A stretch of DNA of 15,333 bases from a virus (lineage: Duplodnaviria; Heunggongvirae; Uroviricota; Caudoviricetes), in IMG/VR virus record IMGVR_UViG_3300010283_000228, positions 1 to 15,333 of that record, one strand, 5' to 3'. A model generated the notes under the pieces. It saw only the letters and a program-made list of their open reading frames with translations. It was not told where the DNA came from and did no database searches. A program made the position numbers and the translations under genes. Of this stretch, positions 2,756 to 15,259 are shown piece by piece (the first letter of the stretch is position 1; every line of letters begins with the position of its first letter).

Positions 2756-3292
2756 TCATTGATGGTCTGATTTTTCCCATTCAGCCAGGGCGTTTAGCCC
2801 GGCTTCACTCCATGATTCCAGTTCATCGGGATAATCACCTGCAACATAGCAGAGTTCGCAACGTAGCATACGAATTGCCAGCCTGGCATTACCTCGCAAA
2901 TTGTATTTTTCAAAGTAATGCTGCCCTTCATCATCCTCAAGGCAGATAGCACCATCATCAAGAAAGAGCACTTCCCAGCCTAATTCCCCGGCTGCATACA
3001 GCACACGCTGCTGTATGTCATCGTCCGTTACTGGCGAAGGAATTTTACCGTCTCTGGCCTTAACTGCTTTCCAGAATTCGCCCCACGTCATTTCCAGCGT
3101 TCTTTCTGGCCACATTTCAGAAACGGTGTCTTTCCCTTGTGCCGGTGGGCTGTTCCGCTGCTCTGTCGCCTCCACATCAATTTTTTTGCCAGACATGATC
3201 ACTTCGCCTTTCTCGATCCAGTCGTAAACTGTCTGGCGGCTTACGCCTTTGTATTTGGCGTATTCGGCTTTACTCATCAACATGTAGCTCAC
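2756..3292 (-). CDS. winged-HTH DNA-binding protein with phage Nu1/small-terminase-like N-terminus, 178 aa (function uncertain: packaging-redirection or regulator)
   Basis: GAGGTG Shine-Dalgarno 6 nt upstream of the ATG at 3292. N-terminal KAEYAKYKGVSRQTVYDWIEKG aligns by eye with the lambda Nu1 HTH (KKQLADIFGASIRTIQNWQEQG) and also with the MerR/excisionase-type HTH. Acidic C-terminal half. Confidence 0.8.
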   Translation of the reverse strand: MSYMLMSKAEYAKYKGVSRQTVYDWIEKGEVIMSGKKIDVEATEQRNSPPAQGKDTVSEMWPERTLEMTWGEFWKAVKARDGKIPSPVTDDDIQQRVLYAAGELGWEVLFLDDGAICLEDDEGQHYFEKYNLRGNARLAIRMLRCELCYVAGDYPDELESWSEAGLNALAEWEKSDHQ

Positions 3293-4097: not shown

Positions 4098-4421
4098 TTA
4101 TTTCATCAGATTTTTCATTATTTGCGCGATTGAGTACACAAGCAAAAACTCGGCAGCCGCAAGAGTATAAAAAACATAAATTCGCTTAGCCCACCGACGA
4201 TGAAAGAACTCCTCAGCATGGCCGGATGTTCGAGATACAAGCCATGCACCTACTGCACACAGAGCAGGTGCAATGAGCACAGTTATAAACCAGATTGTGA
4301 TGCCCATCCCATGCCTACTGATAATAGCCATTGGTATTGCAAAAATGAATGTTAGAGCAGCATTAGCTAATAGAATATCTTTTAAAGTATTTTCAATTAG
4401 TTTTGCTAGATTATCTTTCAT
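4098..4421 (-). CDS. small integral membrane protein, 107 aa, three predicted hydrophobic helices
   Basis: Three hydrophobic segments of about 20 residues each (ILLANAALTFIFAIPMAIIS, ITIWFITVLIAPALCAVGAWLV, IYVFYTLAAAEFLLVYSIAQIM). TGGGGGA lies 4 nt upstream of the ATG. AT-rich. Confidence 0.65.
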   Translation of the reverse strand: MKDNLAKLIENTLKDILLANAALTFIFAIPMAIISRHGMGITIWFITVLIAPALCAVGAWLVSRTSGHAEEFFHRRWAKRIYVFYTLAAAEFLLVYSIAQIMKNLMK

Positions 4422-4451: not shown

Positions 4452-4474
4452 AAAGCCCCTTACTAAGGGGCTTT
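4452..4474 (-). terminator. rho-independent terminator after the lipoprotein gene
   Basis: 10-bp perfect stem aaagcccctt (4452-4461) / aaggggcttt (4465-4474), followed on the minus-strand transcript by UAUAUAUU. Confidence 0.55.
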
Positions 4475-4485
4475 GCACGGATTGT

Positions 4486-5628
4486 TTAAAGGGAACTTTT
4501 TTTCGCCCCTTCAATTTCTGCCTGACAAATTTCGTCATTTGTAAATGAGTACTGCAGATAGACATATCCCTGAGTGGAATTGTTCGCTCTGGCCTCAATA
4601 GATATAGTATCAATATTGTTTTTTAATGGTATTTCTTTTGTTCCCTTCCATGTAGCAGATAAGAAGCGTTCTTTTTTGTTTAGCCCCCTCATCCAGTCCT
4701 GAGGATCTTTCCAAATTGAACCAGCCAGCAAAAAGTCTGTAGTATCAGCCTTTCCATACAGAGAACTTAAAGAATTACTCAATTCTTCAAACTTGGATTT
4801 AAGAGCCAATCCATAGCTATCAGTATCAATATTTTTTCCTAAAGCCCGTATTTGACATAAACCAGCTTTCGGGGAGATCAGCAAACCATACATTTCAAAA
4901 TCTGCGTTTTGCTTCGGTAATTTATCAGAAGTATACAGATTCACACTGTCTGGTAGTGGCTTGAGCTTAGCACCGATCATATCTTCGATGTTTTTCTGTG
5001 TAAGACCGGCTTCTAAGCCAAACGGACCATCCGCTGGCGGGAGTAAAGGAAGTTGCTCTTGGGAATTTTTGGCTGTTACTTCCGTTTCAGTACTGTTTTT
5101 TGCGTCATTAGCTTGTACTGATGCCAGCTTAACTTCAGCGAGGCCATACTTGGCTGTGAGGTACTTTTGCTGCAACATTGCCATGGTCTGCTCTTCAGTG
5201 GCAACAGTAGATAATTTTAGTACCTTTATCAGACCACCACTATACTGACGAGCATCAGCTTTGGCTTCGTTGATTTTTGCATCTAAGCTGTCAATTTCAG
5301 TTTTAATTGAAGCCGCAAGCTCAGGATCAGGTTTTACTCCAGATACAACAACATCAATTTTGGCACCTGATTCAATAGCATTAATACGCTGTTCCAAAAG
5401 CGCTTTATTAGTTCCTAATATTTCCAGTCTTGCTGTTGTCAGATTTTTTATCAACCCACCAGAAAACTGCTGGTCAACTTCCTTAGCTGCTGATATTTCA
5501 CCTTCCGTTTGCGACAGTTCAGCTTTAAGAGCAGCTACTTCCTGTTTCTGTTCTGGAGTTAACTCTTCTGGCCCACATCCGGTTAACATTACTATACCGA
5601 CTAATGTTGCAATTAAAGTTTTATTCAT
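4486..5628 (-). CDS. lipoprotein, 380 aa, with internally repeated SGGLIK-containing module and uncharacterised C-terminal domain
   Basis: N-terminus MNKTLIATLVGIVMLTGC is a signal peptide ending in a lipobox (LTGC). Two related segments, QQFSGGLIKNL and RQYSGGLIKVL, each sit in a charged, helix-prone context. Long protein-like ORF, AT-rich. Shine-Dalgarno is weak (AGGG 2 nt from the ATG). Confidence 0.8.
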   Translation of the reverse strand: MNKTLIATLVGIVMLTGCGPEELTPEQKQEVAALKAELSQTEGEISAAKEVDQQFSGGLIKNLTTARLEILGTNKALLEQRINAIESGAKIDVVVSGVKPDPELAASIKTEIDSLDAKINEAKADARQYSGGLIKVLKLSTVATEEQTMAMLQQKYLTAKYGLAEVKLASVQANDAKNSTETEVTAKNSQEQLPLLPPADGPFGLEAGLTQKNIEDMIGAKLKPLPDSVNLYTSDKLPKQNADFEMYGLLISPKAGLCQIRALGKNIDTDSYGLALKSKFEELSNSLSSLYGKADTTDFLLAGSIWKDPQDWMRGLNKKERFLSATWKGTKEIPLKNNIDTISIEARANNSTQGYVYLQYSFTNDEICQAEIEGAKKSSL

Positions 5629-5762
5629 ATCCCTATTCCAAATGAAAATATTCAGATTAATCTTATCAGGAACCCAGATGCAATTGAATATTCATCTGCT
5701 CAGCAACGTAGTAGATTTCCTCAGAAAGCATCAACAAAAAACCAAGAGAATCCCATCCTCTG

Positions 5763-6050
5763 TTACTGACTACAATTGTTCTTTTTTTGGTATTTCCTGA
5801 ATGCCTCACCATTGGGCTGATGTAATCCCATCCCGGCATGTGCCCGGCTGATGGTTTCGCGCATCTCCCCGAAATTATCCTGCCTTGCTGGTGGGCGTGC
5901 TGCCTTGTGGATACATTCCGCGCGACGTTTTGCCGCCTGTTCCCGTGCCTTGTCATCATTCGCCAGCATGATGACCTCAGCCCACCGCGCCGCCGCTCTC
6001 CGGTACAGACCACGCGCTTCCAGTGCTTCCGCTTTGCTGTCGTGAATCAT
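5763..6050 (-). CDS. PerC/Pch-family-like small transcriptional activator, 95 aa
   Basis: N-terminal AEALEARGLYRRAAARWAEV matches the remembered PerC/Pch signature (A..LE..GLWRRAA..W). ATG at 6050 overlaps the TGA of the upstream FinO-like gene (ATGA). Confidence 0.65.
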   Translation of the reverse strand: MIHDSKAEALEARGLYRRAAARWAEVIMLANDDKAREQAAKRRAECIHKAARPPARQDNFGEMRETISRAHAGMGLHQPNGEAFRKYQKKNNCSQ

Positions 6051-6589
6051 GCGCCTATTGTCTCCTTTGCTGCCCGGCGCTGGCGTTTGCGCTTCTCATT
6101 CAGCGCCACCAGCCGCGTTTCTGCGTCCTGTTGTTCCTGTGGTGTCACCTCGCCGCACGGCTGGCCTTTCAGGTCGTAGCGTACCCCACCAGCCATTAAG
6201 GCGCGGTAATAGCGCGGACACTGCGCATAAGATGCCAGCGTCGCACGCAATGCCCCTGGCCCGAATGCCAGCCCCCTGACGGCGAGATCCTGCATCAGGT
6301 CGTCGAATATCCCCACCTTAAGCGGCTTCAGTGCTTCCCGGCTGAATAAGTCAGGCCACAACTCAGTGAGGCGGTTAACGCGCCTGCGGTTTTTGCGCTG
6401 GCGTTTGGTCATATGCCGCCACGGTGTCGCCCCTGTAGGCTTCTGCTGCGCTTTCTGGTTACCGGGCATCACTTTATGCGCCGATGTGGTTTTATCCTGC
6501 TCCTGTGCCGCCTGCGTCGTTTTCTGCGGCGTGCCGTAAATACCTTTTGGTTTTCTGTTAATGGTCAGCTTAGTCATGCTTTGCCCCAT
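6047..6589 (-). CDS. ProQ/FinO-domain RNA-binding protein, 180 aa (alternative start at 6577)
   Basis: Segment WPDLFSREALKPLKVGIFDDLMQDL...YAQCPRYYRALMAGGVRYDLKGQPCGEVTPQEQQDAE aligns by eye with the E. coli ProQ N-terminal FinO domain ([55 protein letters not shown]). Basic N-terminal tail. Confidence 0.8.
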   Translation of the reverse strand: MGQSMTKLTINRKPKGIYGTPQKTTQAAQEQDKTTSAHKVMPGNQKAQQKPTGATPWRHMTKRQRKNRRRVNRLTELWPDLFSREALKPLKVGIFDDLMQDLAVRGLAFGPGALRATLASYAQCPRYYRALMAGGVRYDLKGQPCGEVTPQEQQDAETRLVALNEKRKRQRRAAKETIGA

Positions 6590-6595
6590 CGTTAC

Positions 6596-6933
6596 AACTG
6601 TCTACCAACTGTCTACCGATATAATTGATTGATTTATTTAATGTTATTAACACATAACAAAAAAACAATCTGCAAACTGTCTACCAACGGTCTACCGCAT
6701 TAATACATTGATAATTAATGATTTTTACTAAATGGTAGACAGTGTAGACAGTTAAAAGAGAAATTTAAAAAATGCCCCCTTAACTATCTGTTTTTTATAT
6801 ACCCCCCGTGGTTTAGGAATATAGAAATAACTGTCTACCTCTCTACCACATTGAAAATATCTTTATAATTCAAAATATTAATTGGTAGATGGTTGGTAGA
6901 GGGTTAAGTGAATCTGTCTACCAACCGTCTACC
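6596..6933. repeat. iteron array (about 12 copies of AACTGTCTACC in direct and inverted pairs) with AT-rich spacers; candidate replication origin
   Basis: Tandem direct pairs at 6596-6617, 6675-6696, 6829-6847 and 6914-6933; inverted pairs GGTAGACAGTGTAGACAG at 6734-6751 and GGTAGATGGTTGGTAGAG at 6884-6900; AT-rich stretches between. Lies immediately 3' of the primase gene. Confidence 0.75.
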
Positions 6934-6960
6934 TTTACGTTTCAGCTTATAAATTTCGTA

Positions 6961-8766
6961 TTATGTTCTGTCGTTAATCCCTGTAGCTGCTGGCAACCAG
7001 CCATCAGCATCATCATCTAACAGAACATTTGTTATCACTCGCCCTTTATCCGGGCCTTTAGTGCATTTAGCCCGCTTATACTCCTTTCCGTATTCCGCCA
7101 TAGCTCCTGGCATATCAGTACCAAAGCGTGTCAGTGATACTGGTTTTCCCAGGCCATGCGCTGACATATAGGCTAAATAAGCATGATACAGGTATCGCCT
7201 CGGGCTAAATGGCACTATTTCCGCATTGCCCACCATCATTCCTTCACATTTAACCAACGACATCAGATAGCCGCAAAAGTCCACCAGTGAATCACCTTCG
7301 CGCTTTATCAACAGCGCTTCTTCTGATTTTTGCTGCTCATAAAGTAGTCTTTTAGCTTCGTCCTGGTCGGTAAATCGTGTTAGCAAATGGCGAATCACTA
7401 CCGCCAGTTCGCCTTCTATCTTTTCCGCCAGCATGGGATCGCGTTCGTTCTCCGGTACGACCTCAGAGAAATTAAATATCACCCTACGACGCGAGATCCC
7501 CCCGCTTCGGTCACTGAATGACATGGCGTTATTGTTTACCGCAAGCACTACTGCCGGAATACGTGTGGAGTAGGGGGCTTTATGTTTCGGATCAATTGCC
7601 ACCTTGTCGCCGCCAGTAATTGCCTTAATTCCTGCACCATCGCCAGCGTAGCGAGTCATATCCGGCATGATAATCAGCGAAAAGCCAACTACTAACGCGC
7701 GTTCCCTTGCGTCTTCCAGAGCCTTCATGCTTGCCGATACTGTGTTGGCCTTACCCGCCAGCATGGTACAAATCTCAGCCATCACACTTTTACCGCTTCC
7801 GCCTGGGCCTGTTACCTCAAGGAATAACTGCCAGTCGTACCGGTTCGCCAGCACCATGAATAATGCCGCCAGTACGCGATCAGCTTTACGATCATTATCT
7901 GCCACCGAACGACGCAGCCACTTCCAGAAATTCGGCGCATGTGTTGCCAGCGTTTCCCCCTCTGCTGGTGGGCTGAACGGTAATTCACTGGCATTTAACA
8001 ACCAGTCATTTTTGTTATGCTCCCGAAAATTTCCCGTCCGGGTATCAAATACCCCGTTACTGAATCCAATAAGATTCCTGTCTGCCCCGCCCATAACAGG
8101 CAGGCTCAATTTCATTGTGTCTACGGCAAATTTAATGGCGTTTTGCGAATAACTGATTCCAGCATCAATAAAAATCTTCGCCATAGACCGCTGGAGTTCC
8201 TTATCAGATACAGGCACCCAGACAATTCCGTTGTAATGGTGAACTACATCAGAATCATCATTTATAGCCAGTGCTCTTCCATAATATTCAAGTAACACTT
8301 CCCCTCTCTGGCTGGCTCCCATCTGATTTAGTGCTGGCCTGGATAGGTCAATATTTTTTGTGGCTAATTTCATCGCTGAAACTTCCCCACTCTCTGCCTG
8401 TTCGCGGATCCGTTGCAGGTAGTCGCGCCAGTTTTCCGGCTCCCGGTCGGTGATACCTTTGTATAATTTCGCGTCCTGTACACCAGCCAGCGCCAGCTTT
8501 TCAGCAATAGCATTGATCTGGATTGGCTCTATCTCCCCCGCGAGATAGACACGTGCAAAGCGGCGTTTCTCGTCAATAATGCGGATATTCGCCAGGTCTG
8601 CCAGTTGCTTTGGCCCCAGATAAACAGGTGGCACGTTATCGCCGTGTTTTCGTCCTTCGCTTTCAATCCAGTGTTGAGCATGGGCGTAAGCATCCGTCCC
8701 GGCAAAAATGATTACCTCGGTGAATTTATCCTTCGGCTGATATTTTAAATTCGGTGCGTTTTTCAC
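6961..8766 (-). CDS. P4 alpha-like phage/plasmid primase-helicase (replication initiator), 601 aa
   Basis: Walker A GPGGSGKS in the C-terminal half. Overall resemblance to P4-family primase C-terminal regions is from memory of that family. GTG start at 8766 overlaps the upstream TGA, with GGGGAGG about 8 nt upstream. Confidence 0.88.
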   Translation of the reverse strand: MKNAPNLKYQPKDKFTEVIIFAGTDAYAHAQHWIESEGRKHGDNVPPVYLGPKQLADLANIRIIDEKRRFARVYLAGEIEPIQINAIAEKLALAGVQDAKLYKGITDREPENWRDYLQRIREQAESGEVSAMKLATKNIDLSRPALNQMGASQRGEVLLEYYGRALAINDDSDVVHHYNGIVWVPVSDKELQRSMAKIFIDAGISYSQNAIKFAVDTMKLSLPVMGGADRNLIGFSNGVFDTRTGNFREHNKNDWLLNASELPFSPPAEGETLATHAPNFWKWLRRSVADNDRKADRVLAALFMVLANRYDWQLFLEVTGPGGSGKSVMAEICTMLAGKANTVSASMKALEDARERALVVGFSLIIMPDMTRYAGDGAGIKAITGGDKVAIDPKHKAPYSTRIPAVVLAVNNNAMSFSDRSGGISRRRVIFNFSEVVPENERDPMLAEKIEGELAVVIRHLLTRFTDQDEAKRLLYEQQKSEEALLIKREGDSLVDFCGYLMSLVKCEGMMVGNAEIVPFSPRRYLYHAYLAYMSAHGLGKPVSLTRFGTDMPGAMAEYGKEYKRAKCTKGPDKGRVITNVLLDDDADGWLPAATGINDRT

Positions 8767-9077
8767 TTCTTACCTCCCCGCTCACGAATAATTTCACGTA
8801 CTGTCCTGATGCGTTCCGCGCCCGTGACGCTCATGATTTTGTCTATGTCGCTTAATTCTGCTGGTGGCGCTTTACTTACCAGGATGAATTCCCTTTCAAA
8901 GCGCATATGTGACGACACGCAGGGATGCGCATAACCTTTGCGGATATAGGTCACGCGAAAATCATCGACGGTTTTAATCGTTATCGTGCCGCCGTATTTA
9001 TCCCGGAAAATATCGCCGGGACGAATTTCAGGCCGAGAGAGACCGCTGACAGTAAAGCCAGAATTTTTCAGTTTCAT
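8763..9077 (-). CDS. hypothetical protein, 104 aa, coupled to the primase gene
   Basis: AGGAAA about 8 nt upstream of the ATG at 9077; stop overlaps the primase start. Protein-like basic composition. Confidence 0.6.
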   Translation of the reverse strand: MKLKNSGFTVSGLSRPEIRPGDIFRDKYGGTITIKTVDDFRVTYIRKGYAHPCVSSHMRFEREFILVSKAPPAELSDIDKIMSVTGAERIRTVREIIRERGGKK

Positions 9078-9867: not shown

Positions 9868-10084
9868 GGTGCACCTCCTGTACATCAGCCATGATAATTT
9901 TTCCGGCCTTATCCAGTGCCTGATCGGCTTTCAGCTGCACAAATGCTAAATAATGGGAGATGCATTCTGATTCTCTGGCTGCGTGTTTATGCGCCACACC
10001 AGCGATAGCAGAAATCTCAATAAGTGAATCCATCAGCGTTTTGATAGCGTCTACCGCTGCATCAGGCCATGTTGCATTACACAT
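9860..10084 (-). CDS. hypothetical protein, 74 aa
   Basis: AGGAGGTGG upstream of the ATG at 10084; ATGTGTAA overlap with the upstream stop. Confidence 0.55.
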   Translation of the reverse strand: MCNATWPDAAVDAIKTLMDSLIEISAIAGVAHKHAARESECISHYLAFVQLKADQALDKAGKIIMADVQEVHHA

Positions 10085-10442
10085 GCTCCACCTCCTGGCG
10101 AATACGGGCAGCGAATACCATCACGCAGCCATCAGGAGATTGCTGGCGTGCTTCCTGTTCGCTGGTGGCCTCGATGTGAATCACGCGCGGTTGTGCCGTA
10201 CTCAGGGCGATAAAACGCCAGATAAAATTGTTTTCGCATTTCTGAATAAACAACGTGTTTTCTTCGCGCCCTTTCCATGTTGCCGAGATATAGCCCATGT
10301 CATTGAGCATCTCGCAGGCATCAACCAGCGTATCGGCGGCTACATGAACAGTGTTTTTACCGTCAGCCATGCAATCACGGTGCACCGCCAAGAAGGTGTA
10401 TATAAATTTAGGGTGAGTTTGGGTATGCTGTGCCCCAGCCAT
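10077..10442 (-). CDS. hypothetical protein, 121 aa (first gene of the leftward small-gene/primase operon)
   Basis: Internal ATG at 10442 with GAGGT 7 nt upstream, located just inside the divergent promoter region. It is the C-terminal in-frame part of the 512-codon track ORF. Confidence 0.45.
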   Translation of the reverse strand: MAGAQHTQTHPKFIYTFLAVHRDCMADGKNTVHVAADTLVDACEMLNDMGYISATWKGREENTLFIQKCENNFIWRFIALSTAQPRVIHIEATSEQEARQQSPDGCVMVFAARIRQEVEHV

Positions 10443-11615
10443 AATCGTTACCTCATTTAACGGTTTGGTTAGACGCCCCGCTACTGCCGCAAACAGTTCG
10501 GGGCGTTGTCGTTTATATCCTCTTACTGAGGTGTGATTTAAATTAAATTTAACTGAATCACAGGTCAAGTATTTTTTGTGATTCTTTTTTGTGTATACTG
10601 AATCACATCTTTTGTTTAGGAGAATGCACATGGCAAAAAACACTATCAACGACAAATCAAAACAGATTTCAATTCGTATCCCACATGATGCTTTTGAAGG
10701 CATGGAATCCGTAAAACTGGACGGCGAAAGCAACGCCGGATTCATAGTAACCGCCATGCGTGGTGAGATCGCCCGCCGCCAGGCAGAAGGAAGCGGAGAA
10801 AATCCCCTGGTTTCTTCGCTCAATGCACTGGCGCAGGTGGAAAAAATCGGAGTCAAAGCTGTCGAGGAGATCGGGCAGCTCGTCACCGTCGCACGTGAAG
10901 AACTCCAGCGCCGCAAGGCCAAAGAATCAGAATAATAACTATCATCGCCGTGGTGTGAGGAACTCCGGCGCATTGCTTTACAGGTACACAGAATGACCAA
11001 CAAAGAATCGACCAATACACCATCACCGGCACGGAAAAGACAGCGCAGAAAGATAACGTACGAATATGAGTCAGACAGATTCGCGCCCTGTGCGTTTATC
11101 CTTGAGAAATTCCTTAAAGAGTACAGGCGCACAAAAATGGGGTCGCATACCTGGAAAACATCGCGGCATGGCAATGTTAAAGAGCAGGAATAGCCCACCA
11201 GCAAGCCAACACACTGATCACATTGCCCACCAGCCGCAAATCTGGCATTGTTGGCGATGTGTTCAAGTGTGTAGCTTTCCCACTGGTGGCCCTCTGCGGT
11301 CGCCTTTGTTTTATCCAGAACGAAATTAGACATCAGATTGATCATCACCTTGCGACCTGACAAAATCGCATCAGTCGCGCCACCAGCAAAATTTTTTGCT
11401 TTCCGGACAGCGTGACCAACGACATTTTGCAGCAAAATATTCTGCATTTCTGGCGTGCTGTAGTAACGGTGATCAGCGCCTTCACTCTGTGCGACCACAA
11501 CGCTATAATCTGCCTCGTAGACAGTAAGCAATATGGCGCAGTAGGCTATTCGTTCACAAAGGCGCTCCGGCAACGGGGCGCTTTCTCTTTTTGTAACGGT
11601 CAGAGCGTTACACAT
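10077..11615 (-). CDS. 512-codon open frame; real translation start at 11615 but middle section probably not a genuine protein
   Basis: ATG at 11615 has GGAGGA upstream and the same ATGTGTAA stop/start overlap as the other coupled genes. The first ~140 codons look protein-like. The middle ~250 codons are Ser/Cys/Arg-rich and run antisense through the RHH gene and the AT-rich promoter region. No in-frame stop before 10077. Confidence 0.3.
   Translation of the reverse strand: MCNALTVTKRESAPLPERLCERIAYCAILLTVYEADYSVVVAQSEGADHRYYSTPEMQNILLQNVVGHAVRKAKNFAGGATDAILSGRKVMINLMSNFVLDKTKATAEGHQWESYTLEHIANNARFAAGGQCDQCVGLLVGYSCSLTLPCRDVFQVCDPIFVRLYSLRNFSRINAQGANLSDSYSYVIFLRCLFRAGDGVLVDSLLVILCTCKAMRRSSSHHGDDSYYSDSLALRRWSSSRATVTSCPISSTALTPIFSTCASALSEETRGFSPLPSAWRRAISPRMAVTMNPALLSPSSFTDSMPSKASCGIRIEICFDLSLIVFFAMCILLNKRCDSVYTKKNHKKYLTCDSVKFNLNHTSVRGYKRQRPELFAAVAGRLTKPLNEVTIMAGAQHTQTHPKFIYTFLAVHRDCMADGKNTVHVAADTLVDACEMLNDMGYISATWKGREENTLFIQKCENNFIWRFIALSTAQPRVIHIEATSEQEARQQSPDGCVMVFAARIRQEVEHV
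10533..10607. promoter_or_regulatory. divergent promoter region with two operator-like inverted repeats TGTGATT-N16-AATCACA
   Basis: TGTGATT at 10533 and 10578, AATCACA at 10556 and 10601, giving operators centred about 45 bp apart. A TATACT -10-like hexamer at 10594-10599 overlaps the second operator, upstream of the plus-strand RHH gene. Confidence 0.5.
10630..10935 (+). CDS. Arc/CopG-type ribbon-helix-helix DNA-binding protein, 101 aa (candidate island repressor)
   Basis: TAGGAGA Shine-Dalgarno 6 nt upstream of the ATG at 10630. KQISIRIPHDAFEGMESVKLDGE followed by SNAGFIVTAMRGEI fits the strand-helix-helix pattern of Arc-like repressors. Coiled-coil-like C-terminal half. Only plus-strand gene in the island, directly after the operator repeats. 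Confidence 0.55.
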   Translation: MAKNTINDKSKQISIRIPHDAFEGMESVKLDGESNAGFIVTAMRGEIARRQAEGSGENPLVSSLNALAQVEKIGVKAVEEIGQLVTVAREELQRRKAKESE

Positions 11616-12456
11616 GGCTGTTTTCCTCCATGCGACGGGCTAACCAACGCTGCGAAAGACGAATTAATTCAGCTTTCCGCTGGTGGTAGTCCAGGCCTAA
11701 CTCAATCAGCGTGATATTGCTCTGCTCAAGGTAAGAAAGGTGCTCAAGCTGCAACGTGCTCATGTGGTCGCGTGGTTCGCCTGTGATGCCGTTCGCCTGC
11801 GTCCACTGTTTTGCAGTCATGCCACCCAGCACGATACGCGCCAGCATATTGGCTTCCGTGGTGTAGTGGTGCTGGAGTGTGTTTTTACCCAGTTCAGCCC
11901 GGTACGCCTCCAGCGCGGCACACATCGGCTTAAAGTAGCTGGCAACGGAGATACGGGCTTTCAGTTCCCGGCGTAACGCTGCGGAACGCACTGGCGCTAC
12001 CTTGTGTAGCTCCTCCTCGCATTTGATGAAGTACTGACGAACGGCGCGGCCCTGTTCGGTGCGCTCGACCATCGCCAGTTCTTTCGCCATGTTCGTGGAG
12101 ATCAAATAGTCTTCACTGCGACGATCACCGCCGCGCTTTGTTGTCCAATCAAAATCAAACTGTTCAATATTTACACTTTGGTTCCCCCGTTTCGGGGAAT
12201 CAAAGTACAAATTATCTACAACTTCAAAATCCACGCCCTTTTTAAATCCGTACTCATCAATGCGTCCTTTAATCCAGGTTGTGAAATCACGCTTCACACC
12301 CAGCGCCTTATGCAACGCTCTGGCGCTAACAATATTGGTTTCACGTCCGCCAATAACGCCGGAAATAACCGGGATAATTTCGCCGAAATTTTGCAGATTC
12401 TGGTTTTCAGGCCGAACGAAGCCCTGCCCCTGTACGGGCGTTTTTCGCTGTTTCAT
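11608..12456 (-). CDS. phage antirepressor-like protein (AntA/Bro-N plus KilA-C-like regions), 282 aa
   Basis: AGGAG 5 nt upstream of the ATG at 12456. SARALHKALGVKRDFTTWIKGRI and later NMAKELAMVERTEQGRAVRQYFIKCEE resemble remembered antirepressor-domain signatures. Confidence 0.75.
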   Translation of the reverse strand: MKQRKTPVQGQGFVRPENQNLQNFGEIIPVISGVIGGRETNIVSARALHKALGVKRDFTTWIKGRIDEYGFKKGVDFEVVDNLYFDSPKRGNQSVNIEQFDFDWTTKRGGDRRSEDYLISTNMAKELAMVERTEQGRAVRQYFIKCEEELHKVAPVRSAALRRELKARISVASYFKPMCAALEAYRAELGKNTLQHHYTTEANMLARIVLGGMTAKQWTQANGITGEPRDHMSTLQLEHLSYLEQSNITLIELGLDYHQRKAELIRLSQRWLARRMEENSHV

Positions 12457-12534: not shown

Positions 12535-12732
12535 TCAGGTAGCTGTTCCGCGTGATTCCGCAATACGCTGATTAATCCACTCGTCAATTTCACTCTCAAC
12601 GAAAGCAATAGCTCGCGAGCCAATTTTAACTGATGCAGGAAATTTACCTTGCCCCATAAGGCGATAAATCCATGCCTTGCTATATCCAGTTCTACGCTGA
12701 ACTTCCGTTAAACGAATAAGAGAGTTTGCCAT
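12535..12732 (-). CDS. alpA: AlpA-family prophage transcriptional regulator, 65 aa
   Basis: MANSLIRLTEVQRRTGYSKAWIYRLMGQGKFPASVKIGSRAIAFVESEIDEWI is the characteristic AlpA-type HTH. AAGGTGA 4 nt upstream of the ATG. Confidence 0.85.
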   Translation of the reverse strand: MANSLIRLTEVQRRTGYSKAWIYRLMGQGKFPASVKIGSRAIAFVESEIDEWINQRIAESRGTAT

Positions 12733-13802: not shown

Positions 13803-15017
13803 TCACCCGCATTTTCCGAACTCACCATGCACCACATTTCCGCCATGCTCGAGCGAATCCATATAGTCGGCATACCACTGGAGCATCTCCCGGCGACCAT
13901 CCAGATATTGCGCATGGTTGTATGTGCCACGAATTGAGTTTTTATCGACGTGTGCGAGCTGTGTCTCTATCCACGCGGTGTTATAGCCCTGCTCATGCAA
14001 AATGGTGCTCATGGTGTGCCGGAATCCATGACCAGTAACCTTTCCGTTATAGCCGATGCGTTTAAATACTTGGTTTATGCTAGCCTCGCTCATTGTTTTC
14101 CTTGGATCATTACGGCCGGGAAACATAAGCGGATAATTGCCAGTTAATTCTTTAATCTGCCCAATAAGCGAAAGAGCCTGCTTAGACAAAGGCACCACAT
14201 GAGGGCGACGCATTTTCATCCGTGAAGCAGGTATCTCCCAGATAGCCTTGTTGAGATCGATTTCATCCCATAATGCACCGCGCAGTTCGCCAGTCCGCAA
14301 ACCGGTGATAATCAGTAGACGAGCCGCCATAACAACCAATGCACTTCCTGAGTAACTGGACAATGCCTTGAAAAAATCAGGTAATTCTTTGGCTGTGAGG
14401 AAAGGATAATGATTAGATTCATGACCTTGCATCGCGCTGGTGAGATCCGGTGCAGGGTTATACTCAGCACGTCCAGTGACAATTGCATAGCGGAAAACCT
14501 CCCCGCATCGCTGCCTCACTTTTTTGGCTTTTTCGGTAGCACCGCGCCCCTCGATGCGCCGCAGCACATTCAGCAGTTCAAGTGGTTTGATTTCGGCGAT
14601 TGGTTTTTTGCCAATGTAAGGGAACACATCTTTGTTGAAGGCTTCGAGGATGTCTGAAGCATAACCAGCAGACCATTTTTTTAATTTGCTGCTGTGCCAC
14701 TCAAGGGCAATATCTTTGAAGGTGTTGTTTAACTGCGTTTCCCGGGCAATCTTTTCCTCTCGTTTCGCTTCCATCGGATCGATACCCCCAGCGATACCCC
14801 TTTTAGCTTCTTCACGTTTTGCACGAGCATCAGCCAAGGTAACTTCAGGATACACACCTAGTGCTAACAGCTTCTCTTTACCAGCTACACGATACTTGAA
14901 GCGCCAATATTTTCCTCCACTAGGTTTTACCAAGAGATACAGACCGCCACCATCAGCCAGCTTGTAAGCCTTCTCTTTTGGCTTGGCAGTGTCTATTTGA
15001 CGGGCATTGAGTTTCAC
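13803..15017 (-). CDS. int: P4-family tyrosine integrase, 404 aa
   Basis: N-terminus KPKEKAYKLADGGGLYLLVKPSGGKYWRFKYR is the hallmark of P4-type integrases. Catalytic-region motifs TGLRTGELRG, HGFRHT and RGTYNHAQY are present. GTG start with GGAGG 9 nt upstream. Located 166 bp from the 3' end of the tRNA. Confidence 0.9.
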   Translation of the reverse strand: MKLNARQIDTAKPKEKAYKLADGGGLYLLVKPSGGKYWRFKYRVAGKEKLLALGVYPEVTLADARAKREEAKRGIAGGIDPMEAKREEKIARETQLNNTFKDIALEWHSSKLKKWSAGYASDILEAFNKDVFPYIGKKPIAEIKPLELLNVLRRIEGRGATEKAKKVRQRCGEVFRYAIVTGRAEYNPAPDLTSAMQGHESNHYPFLTAKELPDFFKALSSYSGSALVVMAARLLIITGLRTGELRGALWDEIDLNKAIWEIPASRMKMRRPHVVPLSKQALSLIGQIKELTGNYPLMFPGRNDPRKTMSEASINQVFKRIGYNGKVTGHGFRHTMSTILHEQGYNTAWIETQLAHVDKNSIRGTYNHAQYLDGRREMLQWYADYMDSLEHGGNVVHGEFGKCG

Positions 15018-15183: not shown

Positions 15184-15259
15184 TGGTGCCGATAAGAGGA
15201 GTCGAACCTCCGACCTTCGCATTACGAATGCGCTGCTCTACCAACTGAGCTATATCGGC
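15184..15259 (-). tRNA. thrW: tRNA-Thr (anticodon CGU)
   Basis: Reverse complement reads GCCGATATAGCTCAGTTGGTAGAGCAGCGCATTCGTAATGCGAAGGTCGGAGGTTCGACTCCTCTTATCGGCACCA: 7-bp acceptor stem, D arm, anticodon loop TTCGTAA (anticodon CGT), T arm GGAGG/TTCGACT/CCTCT, 3' CCA. The thrW symbol is assigned because CGU is the thrW anticodon in E. coli. Confidence 0.9.

Follow-up and report, generated by a model that had tools for sequence, protein, structure and literature searches.

We analyzed a 15,333-nt stretch of viral DNA (Caudoviricetes; IMG/VR record IMGVR_UViG_3300010283_000228; the whole stretch is hereafter called the window), which, judging from its gene content, is an Escherichia coli–type phage-inducible chromosomal island (PICI) read on the minus strand. 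The family names of its genes in RefSeq and the presence of PerC homologues on PICIs are already known; what is new, to a modest degree, is that two adjoining genes of this island, one for a FinO/ProQ-domain protein (FinO-like) and one for a small PerC/Pch-family protein (PerC-like), represent a conserved and widespread cassette of enterobacterial phage satellites (PICI-type islands), of which they would be the first genes after the replication origin, and that the FinO-like protein belongs to a distinct FinO-domain branch. The two family memberships, a 4-nt gene overlap with a Shine–Dalgarno motif inside the upstream gene, purifying selection on both genes and recurrence of the pair behind three replicase types were directly observed. 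As an explanation of the whole, we lean toward the view that this is a conserved satellite cassette expressed from the AlpA operon, in which translational coupling joins RNA binding by the FinO-like protein to remodeling of H-NS complexes by the PerC-like protein.

The pair consists of the following features.

6047–6577, minus strand: FinO/ProQ-domain gene, 176 amino acids (aa); the longest open reading frame (ORF), 180 aa, begins at 6589
5763–6050, minus strand: PerC/Pch-family small regulator gene, 95 aa
6047–6050, minus strand: ATGA stop/start overlap of 4 nt, read from the sequence
6062–6067, minus strand: AAGGAG Shine–Dalgarno-like motif, 11 nt ahead of the PerC-like ATG and within the 3′ end of the FinO-like ORF

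A preliminary description of this DNA, made from the sequence alone, had placed the pair at 5763–6589 and had noted that the TGA of the first gene overlaps the ATG of the second; both ORFs were found there, on the minus strand, and the overlap was read directly and proved to be conserved (see below). The minus-strand junction reads ...GCAAAGGAGACAATAGGCGC ATG A TTCACGAC, such that the FinO-like frame ends in GCA TGA (TGA, 6049–6047) and the PerC-like ATG occupies 6050–6048. The span of 5763–6589 given earlier holds for the longest ORF, but the second in-frame ATG, at 6577, is more likely to be the FinO-like start than that at 6589, because homologue alignment, the RefSeq annotation and the upstream sequence all favor it: the four residues preceding the start at 6577 (MTKLTINRKP...) were missing in 13 of 13 aligned homologues, 11 of which begin with the motif M-x-x-L-T-I; the identical RefSeq copy is annotated with the corresponding start; and GGGG lies 6 nt upstream of ATG 6577, whereas ATG 6589 is without a ribosome-binding motif.

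By itself, a 4-nt overlap is ordinary. We therefore considered its conservation in relatives, using IMG/VR contigs and exact-protein look-ups for the cassette comparisons. Across 47 distinct nucleotide versions of the FinO-to-PerC pair (from IMG/VR and genome loci), nearly all had the ATGA overlap and one had GTGA, and the upstream AAGGAG was kept in nearly all of the listed versions. Hence, relatives retain both the stop/start overlap and, within the upstream ORF, a ribosome-binding site, as expected of a coupled pair. The FinO-to-PerC order with an overlap was found behind three replicase types: the D5-type enzyme of the window; a DUF927 primase followed by a single-stranded DNA-binding protein (SSB) gene (L136; 4-nt overlap, FinO-like allele 88% identical); and a Toprim/DUF927 primase in a Salmonella locus (L140; 14-nt overlap), in which the FinO-like and PerC-like proteins are only 39% and 52% identical to those of the window. 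Other junctions were also seen: the two genes abut with a 0-nt gap in L012, are separated by 19–22 nt in L093 and the O157:H7 islands, and are reversed in L010 (SSB–PerC–FinO). In E. coli O157:H7 E32511 (L146, 5479–8063), an SSB gene is followed by a 138-aa FinO-like gene, a PerC gene after a 22-nt gap and two further PerC-family genes, and this gene order places the pch-type genes of enterohemorrhagic E. coli (EHEC) in the same post-origin module. On these sequence comparisons, the combined conservation of the overlap, the AAGGAG motif and the adjacency in distant relatives exceeds chance.

A natural deletion was also encountered in protein P0113, from a 2506-nt Logan assembly contig, where FinO-like residues 5–93 are fused in frame to PerC residues 53–95. 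In this fusion, FinO-like 5–93 in the numbering of the window corresponds to residues 1–89 of P0113, and the PerC part makes up the last 43 residues.

Of 5426 complete E. coli genomes, 1159 had blastn matches to the FinO-like gene, at up to nine places per genome; all were chromosomal, with none on a plasmid, and all were annotated as ‘ProQ/FINO family protein’. Named homologues of the FinO-like protein came from Escherichia, Shigella, Salmonella and Citrobacter, and those of PerC additionally from Klebsiella, Enterobacter, Kluyvera and Buttiauxella; a one-genome-per-species scan with narrow search patterns gave two loci, in E. ruysiae and E. albertii. Leaving aside one chromosome record that had been mis-filed, plasmid homologues of the FinO-like protein did not exceed about 43% identity. 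An origin from a true phage was rejected, as phage matches amounted to just seven weak ones for FinO-like and two for PerC.

The ProQ/FinO assignment made earlier was borne out by a profile search, in which residues 68–172 of the FinO-like protein matched positions 5–108 of the 109 in PF04352 with 82.6 bits against a curated cut-off of 27; structure and fold matches agreed. The N-terminal tail of the protein is basic and predicted to be disordered (18 Lys/Arg versus 3 Asp/Glu in 73 residues); the FinO domain spans about residues 62–150, and the C-terminal part forms a long helix. Among solved structures, the N-terminal domain of ProQ was the best match by sequence (1e-11), and NMB1681, FinO and RocC matched as well. 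According to the AlphaFold2 model, helices at 62–77, 94–105, 111–122 and 125–132 are accompanied by a hairpin at 136–147 and the long C-terminal helix, which gives the helical core and β-hairpin of a FinO-domain fold at moderate model confidence; the predicted local distance difference test (pLDDT) score of the domain was about 56–85 by 10-residue block, and residues 1–53 were disordered. All 23 Foldseek matches at E ≤ 0.001 were FinO-domain structures (NMB1681, FinO or RocC), with Lpp1663 next at 1.7e-3, and the TM-scores normalized to the target were 0.41–0.55.

The RNA-binding residues point in the same direction. ProQ needs R58, Y70 and R80 to bind each of the seven RNAs that were tested with it (PMC10578477); their counterparts in the alignment are R115, Y127 and R137 of the FinO-like protein, and that of ProQ G37 is G93. 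All four positions were invariant or nearly so in 14 members of the FinO-like subfamily. The gene showed a dN/dS of 0.25, with the tail (0.25) constrained like the domain (0.23), and the start M-T-x-LTI-x-RKPKG was kept even at 39% overall identity. PADLOC returned no defense-system match for either the FinO-like or the PerC-like protein.

Membership in the known FinO-domain branches was considered and rejected. Compared with FinO of F-like plasmids, the protein has in common the FinO-domain fold, the Tyr/Arg pocket, a basic N-terminal extension and carriage on a mobile element; however, identity is about 28–36% in the domain only, the gene is chromosomal and satellite-borne rather than on plasmids, and no FinP-like antisense RNA was found for it. 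The NCBIfam FinO model, which aligns to residues 35–175, scored 58.6 bits against a cut-off of 136. FopA (YafB) of the IncI plasmid pCol1B9 is likewise a small FinO-domain protein of a mobile element with a basic N-terminal region of its own, but the two are 32% identical over the domain only, their flanking regions, including the N-terminal ones, are unrelated, and the gene contexts differ. ProQ is the closest solved structure by sequence and its R58, Y70, R80 and G37 equivalents are kept; however, the linker and the C-terminal Tudor-like domain are missing from the FinO-like protein, and the NCBIfam ProQ model scored 56.1 bits against a cut-off of 127.

The second gene was confirmed as a PerC family member, as previously described, by a match to positions 1–89 of the 90 in PF06069 with 109.1 bits against a curated cut-off of 22.6. 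Its N-terminal part contains the PerC motif D-x-KAE-x-LE-x-x-G-x-YRRAA-x-RW, and D4, K6, A7, E8, L10, E11, G14, Y16, R17, R18, A19, R22 and C46 were invariant in 28 PerC homologues; the dN/dS was 0.29. The protein is 52% identical to the PerC protein of the island EcCICFT073, 89% identical to a 54-aa protein named PchE in its source and 63% identical to a ‘PchABC family’ protein. No solved structure matching it by sequence was found, which agrees with the report that Pch has no homology to DNA-binding proteins and activates LEE1 (in the enterocyte effacement locus, LEE) only where H-NS/StpA/Hha silencing is present (PMC4764244). In the structural model, the three-helix N-terminal part had pLDDT values above 90 and matched tetratricopeptide repeat (TPR)-type repeats only, and the protein thus models as a short TPR-like helical bundle without a helix-turn-helix.

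The island in which the pair resides has the following features.

15184–15259: tRNA-Thr (CGT), found with ARAGORN, marking the island end together with the integrase
13803–15017, minus strand: tyrosine integrase (Pfam integrase domains), adjoining tRNA-Thr
12535–12732, minus strand: AlpA-family regulator (Pfam Phage_AlpA, 69.4 bits)
11608–12456, minus strand: AntA-like gene
8763–9077, minus strand: DUF4222 gene, preceded by several small ORFs
6961–8766, minus strand: P4/D5-type primase-helicase (pri-rep; Pfam D5_N, DUF5906 and Pox_D5; NCBIfam TIGR01613 primase_Cterm)
6596–6936: replication origin, with about 14 GTCTACC iterons in both orientations around an AT-rich core (GC 0.32)
4486–5628, minus strand: predicted lipoprotein, 380 aa, directly after the pair
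4452–4474, minus strand: first strong intrinsic-terminator-like hairpin after the pair (10-bp stem plus T-run), following the lipoprotein gene
4098–4421, minus strand: membrane protein, 107 aa, just past the 4474–4452 terminator

An integrase at a tRNA, an AlpA gene, a primase gene followed by an iteron origin and a single transcription direction are the gene-content marks of a Gram-negative PICI, and all were found; the window is also, as expected for a PICI, about 15 kb long and without virion or lysis genes. The region 5600–6700 has a 100% identical copy in E. coli 537-20, where the identical island lies between tRNA-Thr/proA and the pao genes and where RefSeq names the pair ‘ProQ/FINO family protein’ and ‘PerC family transcriptional regulator’. 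Within the window, neither an att direct repeat of at least 14 nt matching the tRNA end nor the left end of the island was found. The origin is flanked by the primase stop (6961) and the FinO-like gene, its repeats comprise families D1–D6 and inverted pairs I1–I24, and its last iteron ends 18 nt ahead of ATG 6577, so that the pair does adjoin the origin, as the preliminary description had proposed. This layout agrees with that published for E. coli PICI origins (PMC6092414). It is also close to that of EcCICFT073, with which the window has in common the order int – alpA – (icd-like, small ORFs, DUF4222) – primase – iteron origin – post-origin genes, a TerS/Rpp-like helix-turn-helix protein after the origin, a tRNA attachment site, the lack of virion genes and a length of about 15 kb. 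The two differ directly after the origin, where EcCICFT073 has a hypothetical gene, SSB and PerC, whereas the window has FinO-like and PerC-like genes and no SSB.

In E. coli PICIs, AlpA is the master activator of an operon running through the primase, the origin and beyond (PMC6092414). The primase gene is the upstream neighbor of the pair and is transcribed in the same direction. On the coding strand, no terminator-like site was detected from the primase gene (8766) down to 4474–4452; neither a consensus promoter between the primase gene and the pair nor a promoter-like site between the FinO-like and PerC-like genes was found. The site at 4474–4452 is likely the 3′ end of the transcription unit holding the pair. 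Since no promoter- or terminator-like site separates the two genes, their co-transcription, as predicted from sequence signals, is the simplest reading.

The GC content was 0.58 in the cassette (5763–6577), 0.45 in the window, 0.32 in the origin and 0.41 in everything downstream; this sharp step in composition suggests that the cassette has a different history from the neighboring cargo. The lipoprotein (4486–5628) and the membrane protein (4098–4421) had no family match in Pfam, PHROGs or PADLOC. Further downstream, a minus-strand gene at 2756–3292 encodes a 178-aa protein with an N-terminal helix-turn-helix like that of small terminases and excisionases (Pfam HTH_17; PHROG 57 TerS), which may be the Rpp/TerS-like packaging-redirection protein of the island. 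A 401-aa STAND/AAA NTPase (Pfam nSTAND1; weak PADLOC PDC-S59 match), a candidate for anti-phage defense cargo, is encoded on the minus strand at 843–2048; here the island is richest in AT (GC about 0.34), and a strong terminator (802–778) comes after the gene.

A plus-strand unit (10591–11594) converges on the main operon; it holds a 114-aa ORF, named YlcI/YnfO in the RefSeq copy, and a 66-aa ORF, and has two terminators.

11285–11304, plus strand: terminator
11559–11584, plus strand: strong terminator

Just ahead of the latter, a sigma-70-like promoter matching at 10 of 12 positions lies at 11481–11509 (+), and the two could yield an RNA of about 80 nt. We considered this RNA (11481–11594, +) as a FinO-specific ligand and rejected it, as a 57-nt core is kept in many PICIs, including EcCICFT073; the element is best read as the terminator of the convergent YlcI/YnfO-type unit. 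A weak hairpin antisense to the FinO-like ORF (6369–6385) was also set aside, its conservation coming only through the coding sequence. Through the plus-strand unit runs an antisense 512-aa ORF (10077–11615, minus strand), which is probably not a gene; the identical RefSeq island has an annotated pseudogene, an Icd-like remnant, that matches only the final portion of this ORF.

The explanation that we favor combines these elements as follows. The pair would be transcribed within the long minus-strand operon running through the primase gene and the origin and, because it lies in that operon without a consensus promoter of its own, would be expressed mainly when a helper phage switches the island on through AlpA. 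From the overlap and the internal Shine–Dalgarno motif, termination–reinitiation coupling is predicted: ribosomes ending the FinO-like ORF would restart at the overlapping ATG, tying PerC-like synthesis to FinO-like output. Using the conserved pocket of G93, R115, Y127 and R137, the FinO-like protein would bind one or a few structured RNAs at their 3′ terminator hairpin and tail, and its conserved basic N-terminal tail may promote or block RNA–RNA pairing, as FinO does with FinP/traJ (PMC9977716) and FopA with Inc/repZ (PMC7491321); RocC/RocR (PMC9674577) offers a further analogy for RNA binding. The source of the ligand could be the island, the helper phage or the host. By analogy to Pch, whose member PchA derepresses H-NS-silenced promoters (PMC4764244), the PerC-like protein may remodel H-NS-type nucleoprotein complexes on AT-rich DNA, and the downstream genes of the island are plausible targets because the GC-rich cassette borders AT-rich cargo.

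Several observations weigh against this explanation. On the RNA side, no partner was found: an Rfam scan of the window at E ≤ 1 gave the tRNA and two chance matches to plastid families, antisense terminator-like sites in the window and in two distant cassettes were weak and no commoner than in shuffled sequence, and the sole good small-RNA-like element, 11481–11594 (+), is also present in EcCICFT073, which has no FinO-like gene. In the promoter and terminator scans, likewise, nothing in the vicinity of the primase gene, the origin or the cassette made a convincing antisense unit. On the protein side, the AlphaFold2 model of the FinO-like protein is only moderately confident (mean pLDDT 62), and ProQ K54 and R62, which contribute moderately to binding, are replaced by P and A. 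On the side of the pair, the genes are separable. Islands of the L055 type, which carry capsid and protease genes, have a FinO-like gene without PerC; the very common lineage L004–L009 of E. coli genomes (4479–5129) keeps only a PerC remnant; EcCICFT073 has SSB–PerC without a FinO-like gene; and two more PerC lineages stand alone. In L004–L009, the FinO-like stop is overlapped by a 138-aa gene whose N-terminal region is Ant-like, and the PerC remnant is the C-terminal half of 49 aa (Pfam positions 41–88 of 90); this is the commonest FinO-like lineage, its protein P0046 being indexed in 4005 blocks of the contig collection. In addition, synonymous divergence between the same pairs of islands was 0.87 for the PerC-like gene versus 0.28 for the FinO-like gene, and because of this approximately threefold difference, the sequences suggest recombination at the FinO/PerC junction. 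Finally, overlapping neighbors are the rule in this island, where RefSeq annotates seven overlapping same-strand pairs (4 or 8 nt) in the identical copy, and the ATGA overlap may be mere compaction.

These observations are what would be expected if the two were independent accessory genes in a variable post-origin region, neighbors without a shared function whose ATGA reflects genome compaction. Each gene is indeed found without the other, the divergence difference and the seven annotated overlaps fit, and in L055 the FinO-like gene overlaps via GTGA a different gene, for an 82-aa phrog_1957 protein, in the place of the absent PerC. We nevertheless regard this alternative as rather unlikely, as the adjacency persists to 39% and 52% identity, behind three replicase types, in two genera, through reordering and with several junction types; such persistence is hard to explain without selection for keeping the pair together.

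A role of the FinO-like protein within the replication module, as a chaperone of an antisense or primer-type RNA that sets replicase level or origin firing, with PerC as a passenger, is doubtful. Models for it exist in FopA/Inc for IncI plasmids, where FopA is a chaperone of the Inc antisense RNA and its main target controls replication (PMC7491321), and in FinO/RepX for a co-resident plasmid; more broadly, FinO-domain proteins of mobile elements control replication or transfer via cis-antisense RNAs (PMC7491321, PMC8136791, PMC9977716). The position of the FinO-like gene is in line with such a role: it always comes immediately behind the replicase and origin, often as the next gene after SSB, and in the window it starts 18 nt from the first iteron. 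However, neither in the origin nor antisense to the primase gene did a promoter–terminator pair stand out, and near-identical FinO-like alleles occur with unrelated replicases and iterons, as in the 88% identical allele behind DUF927 and SSB. EcCICFT073, moreover, lacks the FinO-like gene, and in its case pri-ori alone was tested for plasmid maintenance and the origin function was characterized (PMC6092414).

The PerC-like protein had been termed an activator; its membership in the PerC family stands, but ‘activator’ is only a family label, as relatives differ in effect. The PerC protein of enteropathogenic E. coli, PchA/B/C and PchE of EHEC and the PerC genes of PICIs all have a full-length PF06069 match in common, and the PerC-like genes of EcCICFT073, EcCIEDL933 and EcCIMP1 occupy the same post-origin position. 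In the literature on these proteins, activity is allele-specific (activator, neutral or repressor), and the allele of the window differs in being overlapped by a FinO-like gene. When overexpressed, PchE raises flagella and represses adhesins, curli among them (PMC7369912), and EcCIMP1_025, a PICI PerC-like protein, represses LEE1 in Citrobacter rodentium (PMC11773190). These effects favor a module directed at the host, in which the PerC-like protein reprograms adhesins, motility or LEE and the FinO-like protein rewires host small-RNA networks to the benefit of the host cell rather than of the island life cycle; FopA also binds chromosomal RNAs (PMC7491321), and LEE expression drops when a related O157 island is deleted, according to the account of Flockhart 2012 in PMC6092414. 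We consider this alternative improbable, since the best-matching genomes among the matches listed came from blood, urine, rectal swab, wastewater, seawater and cattle isolates (LEE carriage was not checked), expression without induction is uncertain given that no consensus promoter of the pair's own was found, and, in the account of Porter 2005 given by PMC11773190, LEE1 was unaffected by the PerC homologues of EcCIEDL933 and EcCICFT073.

In the literature searched, a FinO/ProQ gene and PerC were not discussed as a pair. PerC homologues on E. coli PICIs have been published (PMC6092414), and when the post-origin genes of EcCICFT073 were cloned singly, only rppA (c1503) blocked lambda (PMC6739421). 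The only co-mention was in an Enterobacter survey that annotates a ProQ/FinO-like gene on a PICI and lists PerC separately, on different PICIs (PMC13612085); a ProQ/FinO-like gene is also annotated on Vibrio episomal satellites (PMC13230959).

A more far-reaching version of the satellite-cassette explanation, which we put forward only tentatively, is that the pair is a dedicated two-layer control module and a fourth FinO-domain branch of E. coli beside ProQ, FinO and FopA, present in about one-fifth of complete genomes. In such a module, the FinO-like protein would capture an antisense RNA of the helper or the island, and the co-translated PerC would relieve AT-rich genes of the island or the helper from silencing by H-NS; jointly, the two would control when the satellite replicates, is packaged or exploits its helper.

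Should the pair serve no function for the island, these are just two more annotated accessory genes. The FinO-domain proteins of mobile elements studied so far (FinO and FopA) are on plasmids, where they gate transfer or replication via a single antisense RNA, and with a conserved, satellite-borne branch, found on 1159 of 5426 complete E. coli chromosomes, this plasmid logic would reach phage satellites, in a simple system of one small FinO-like protein and probably few RNA ligands. For the PerC/Pch family, the results mean that, in many strains including O157:H7, these genes are not isolated ‘virulence regulators’ but come second in a post-origin FinO–PerC cassette, and that cloned ‘pch promoter’ regions may therefore include part of the FinO-like ORF.

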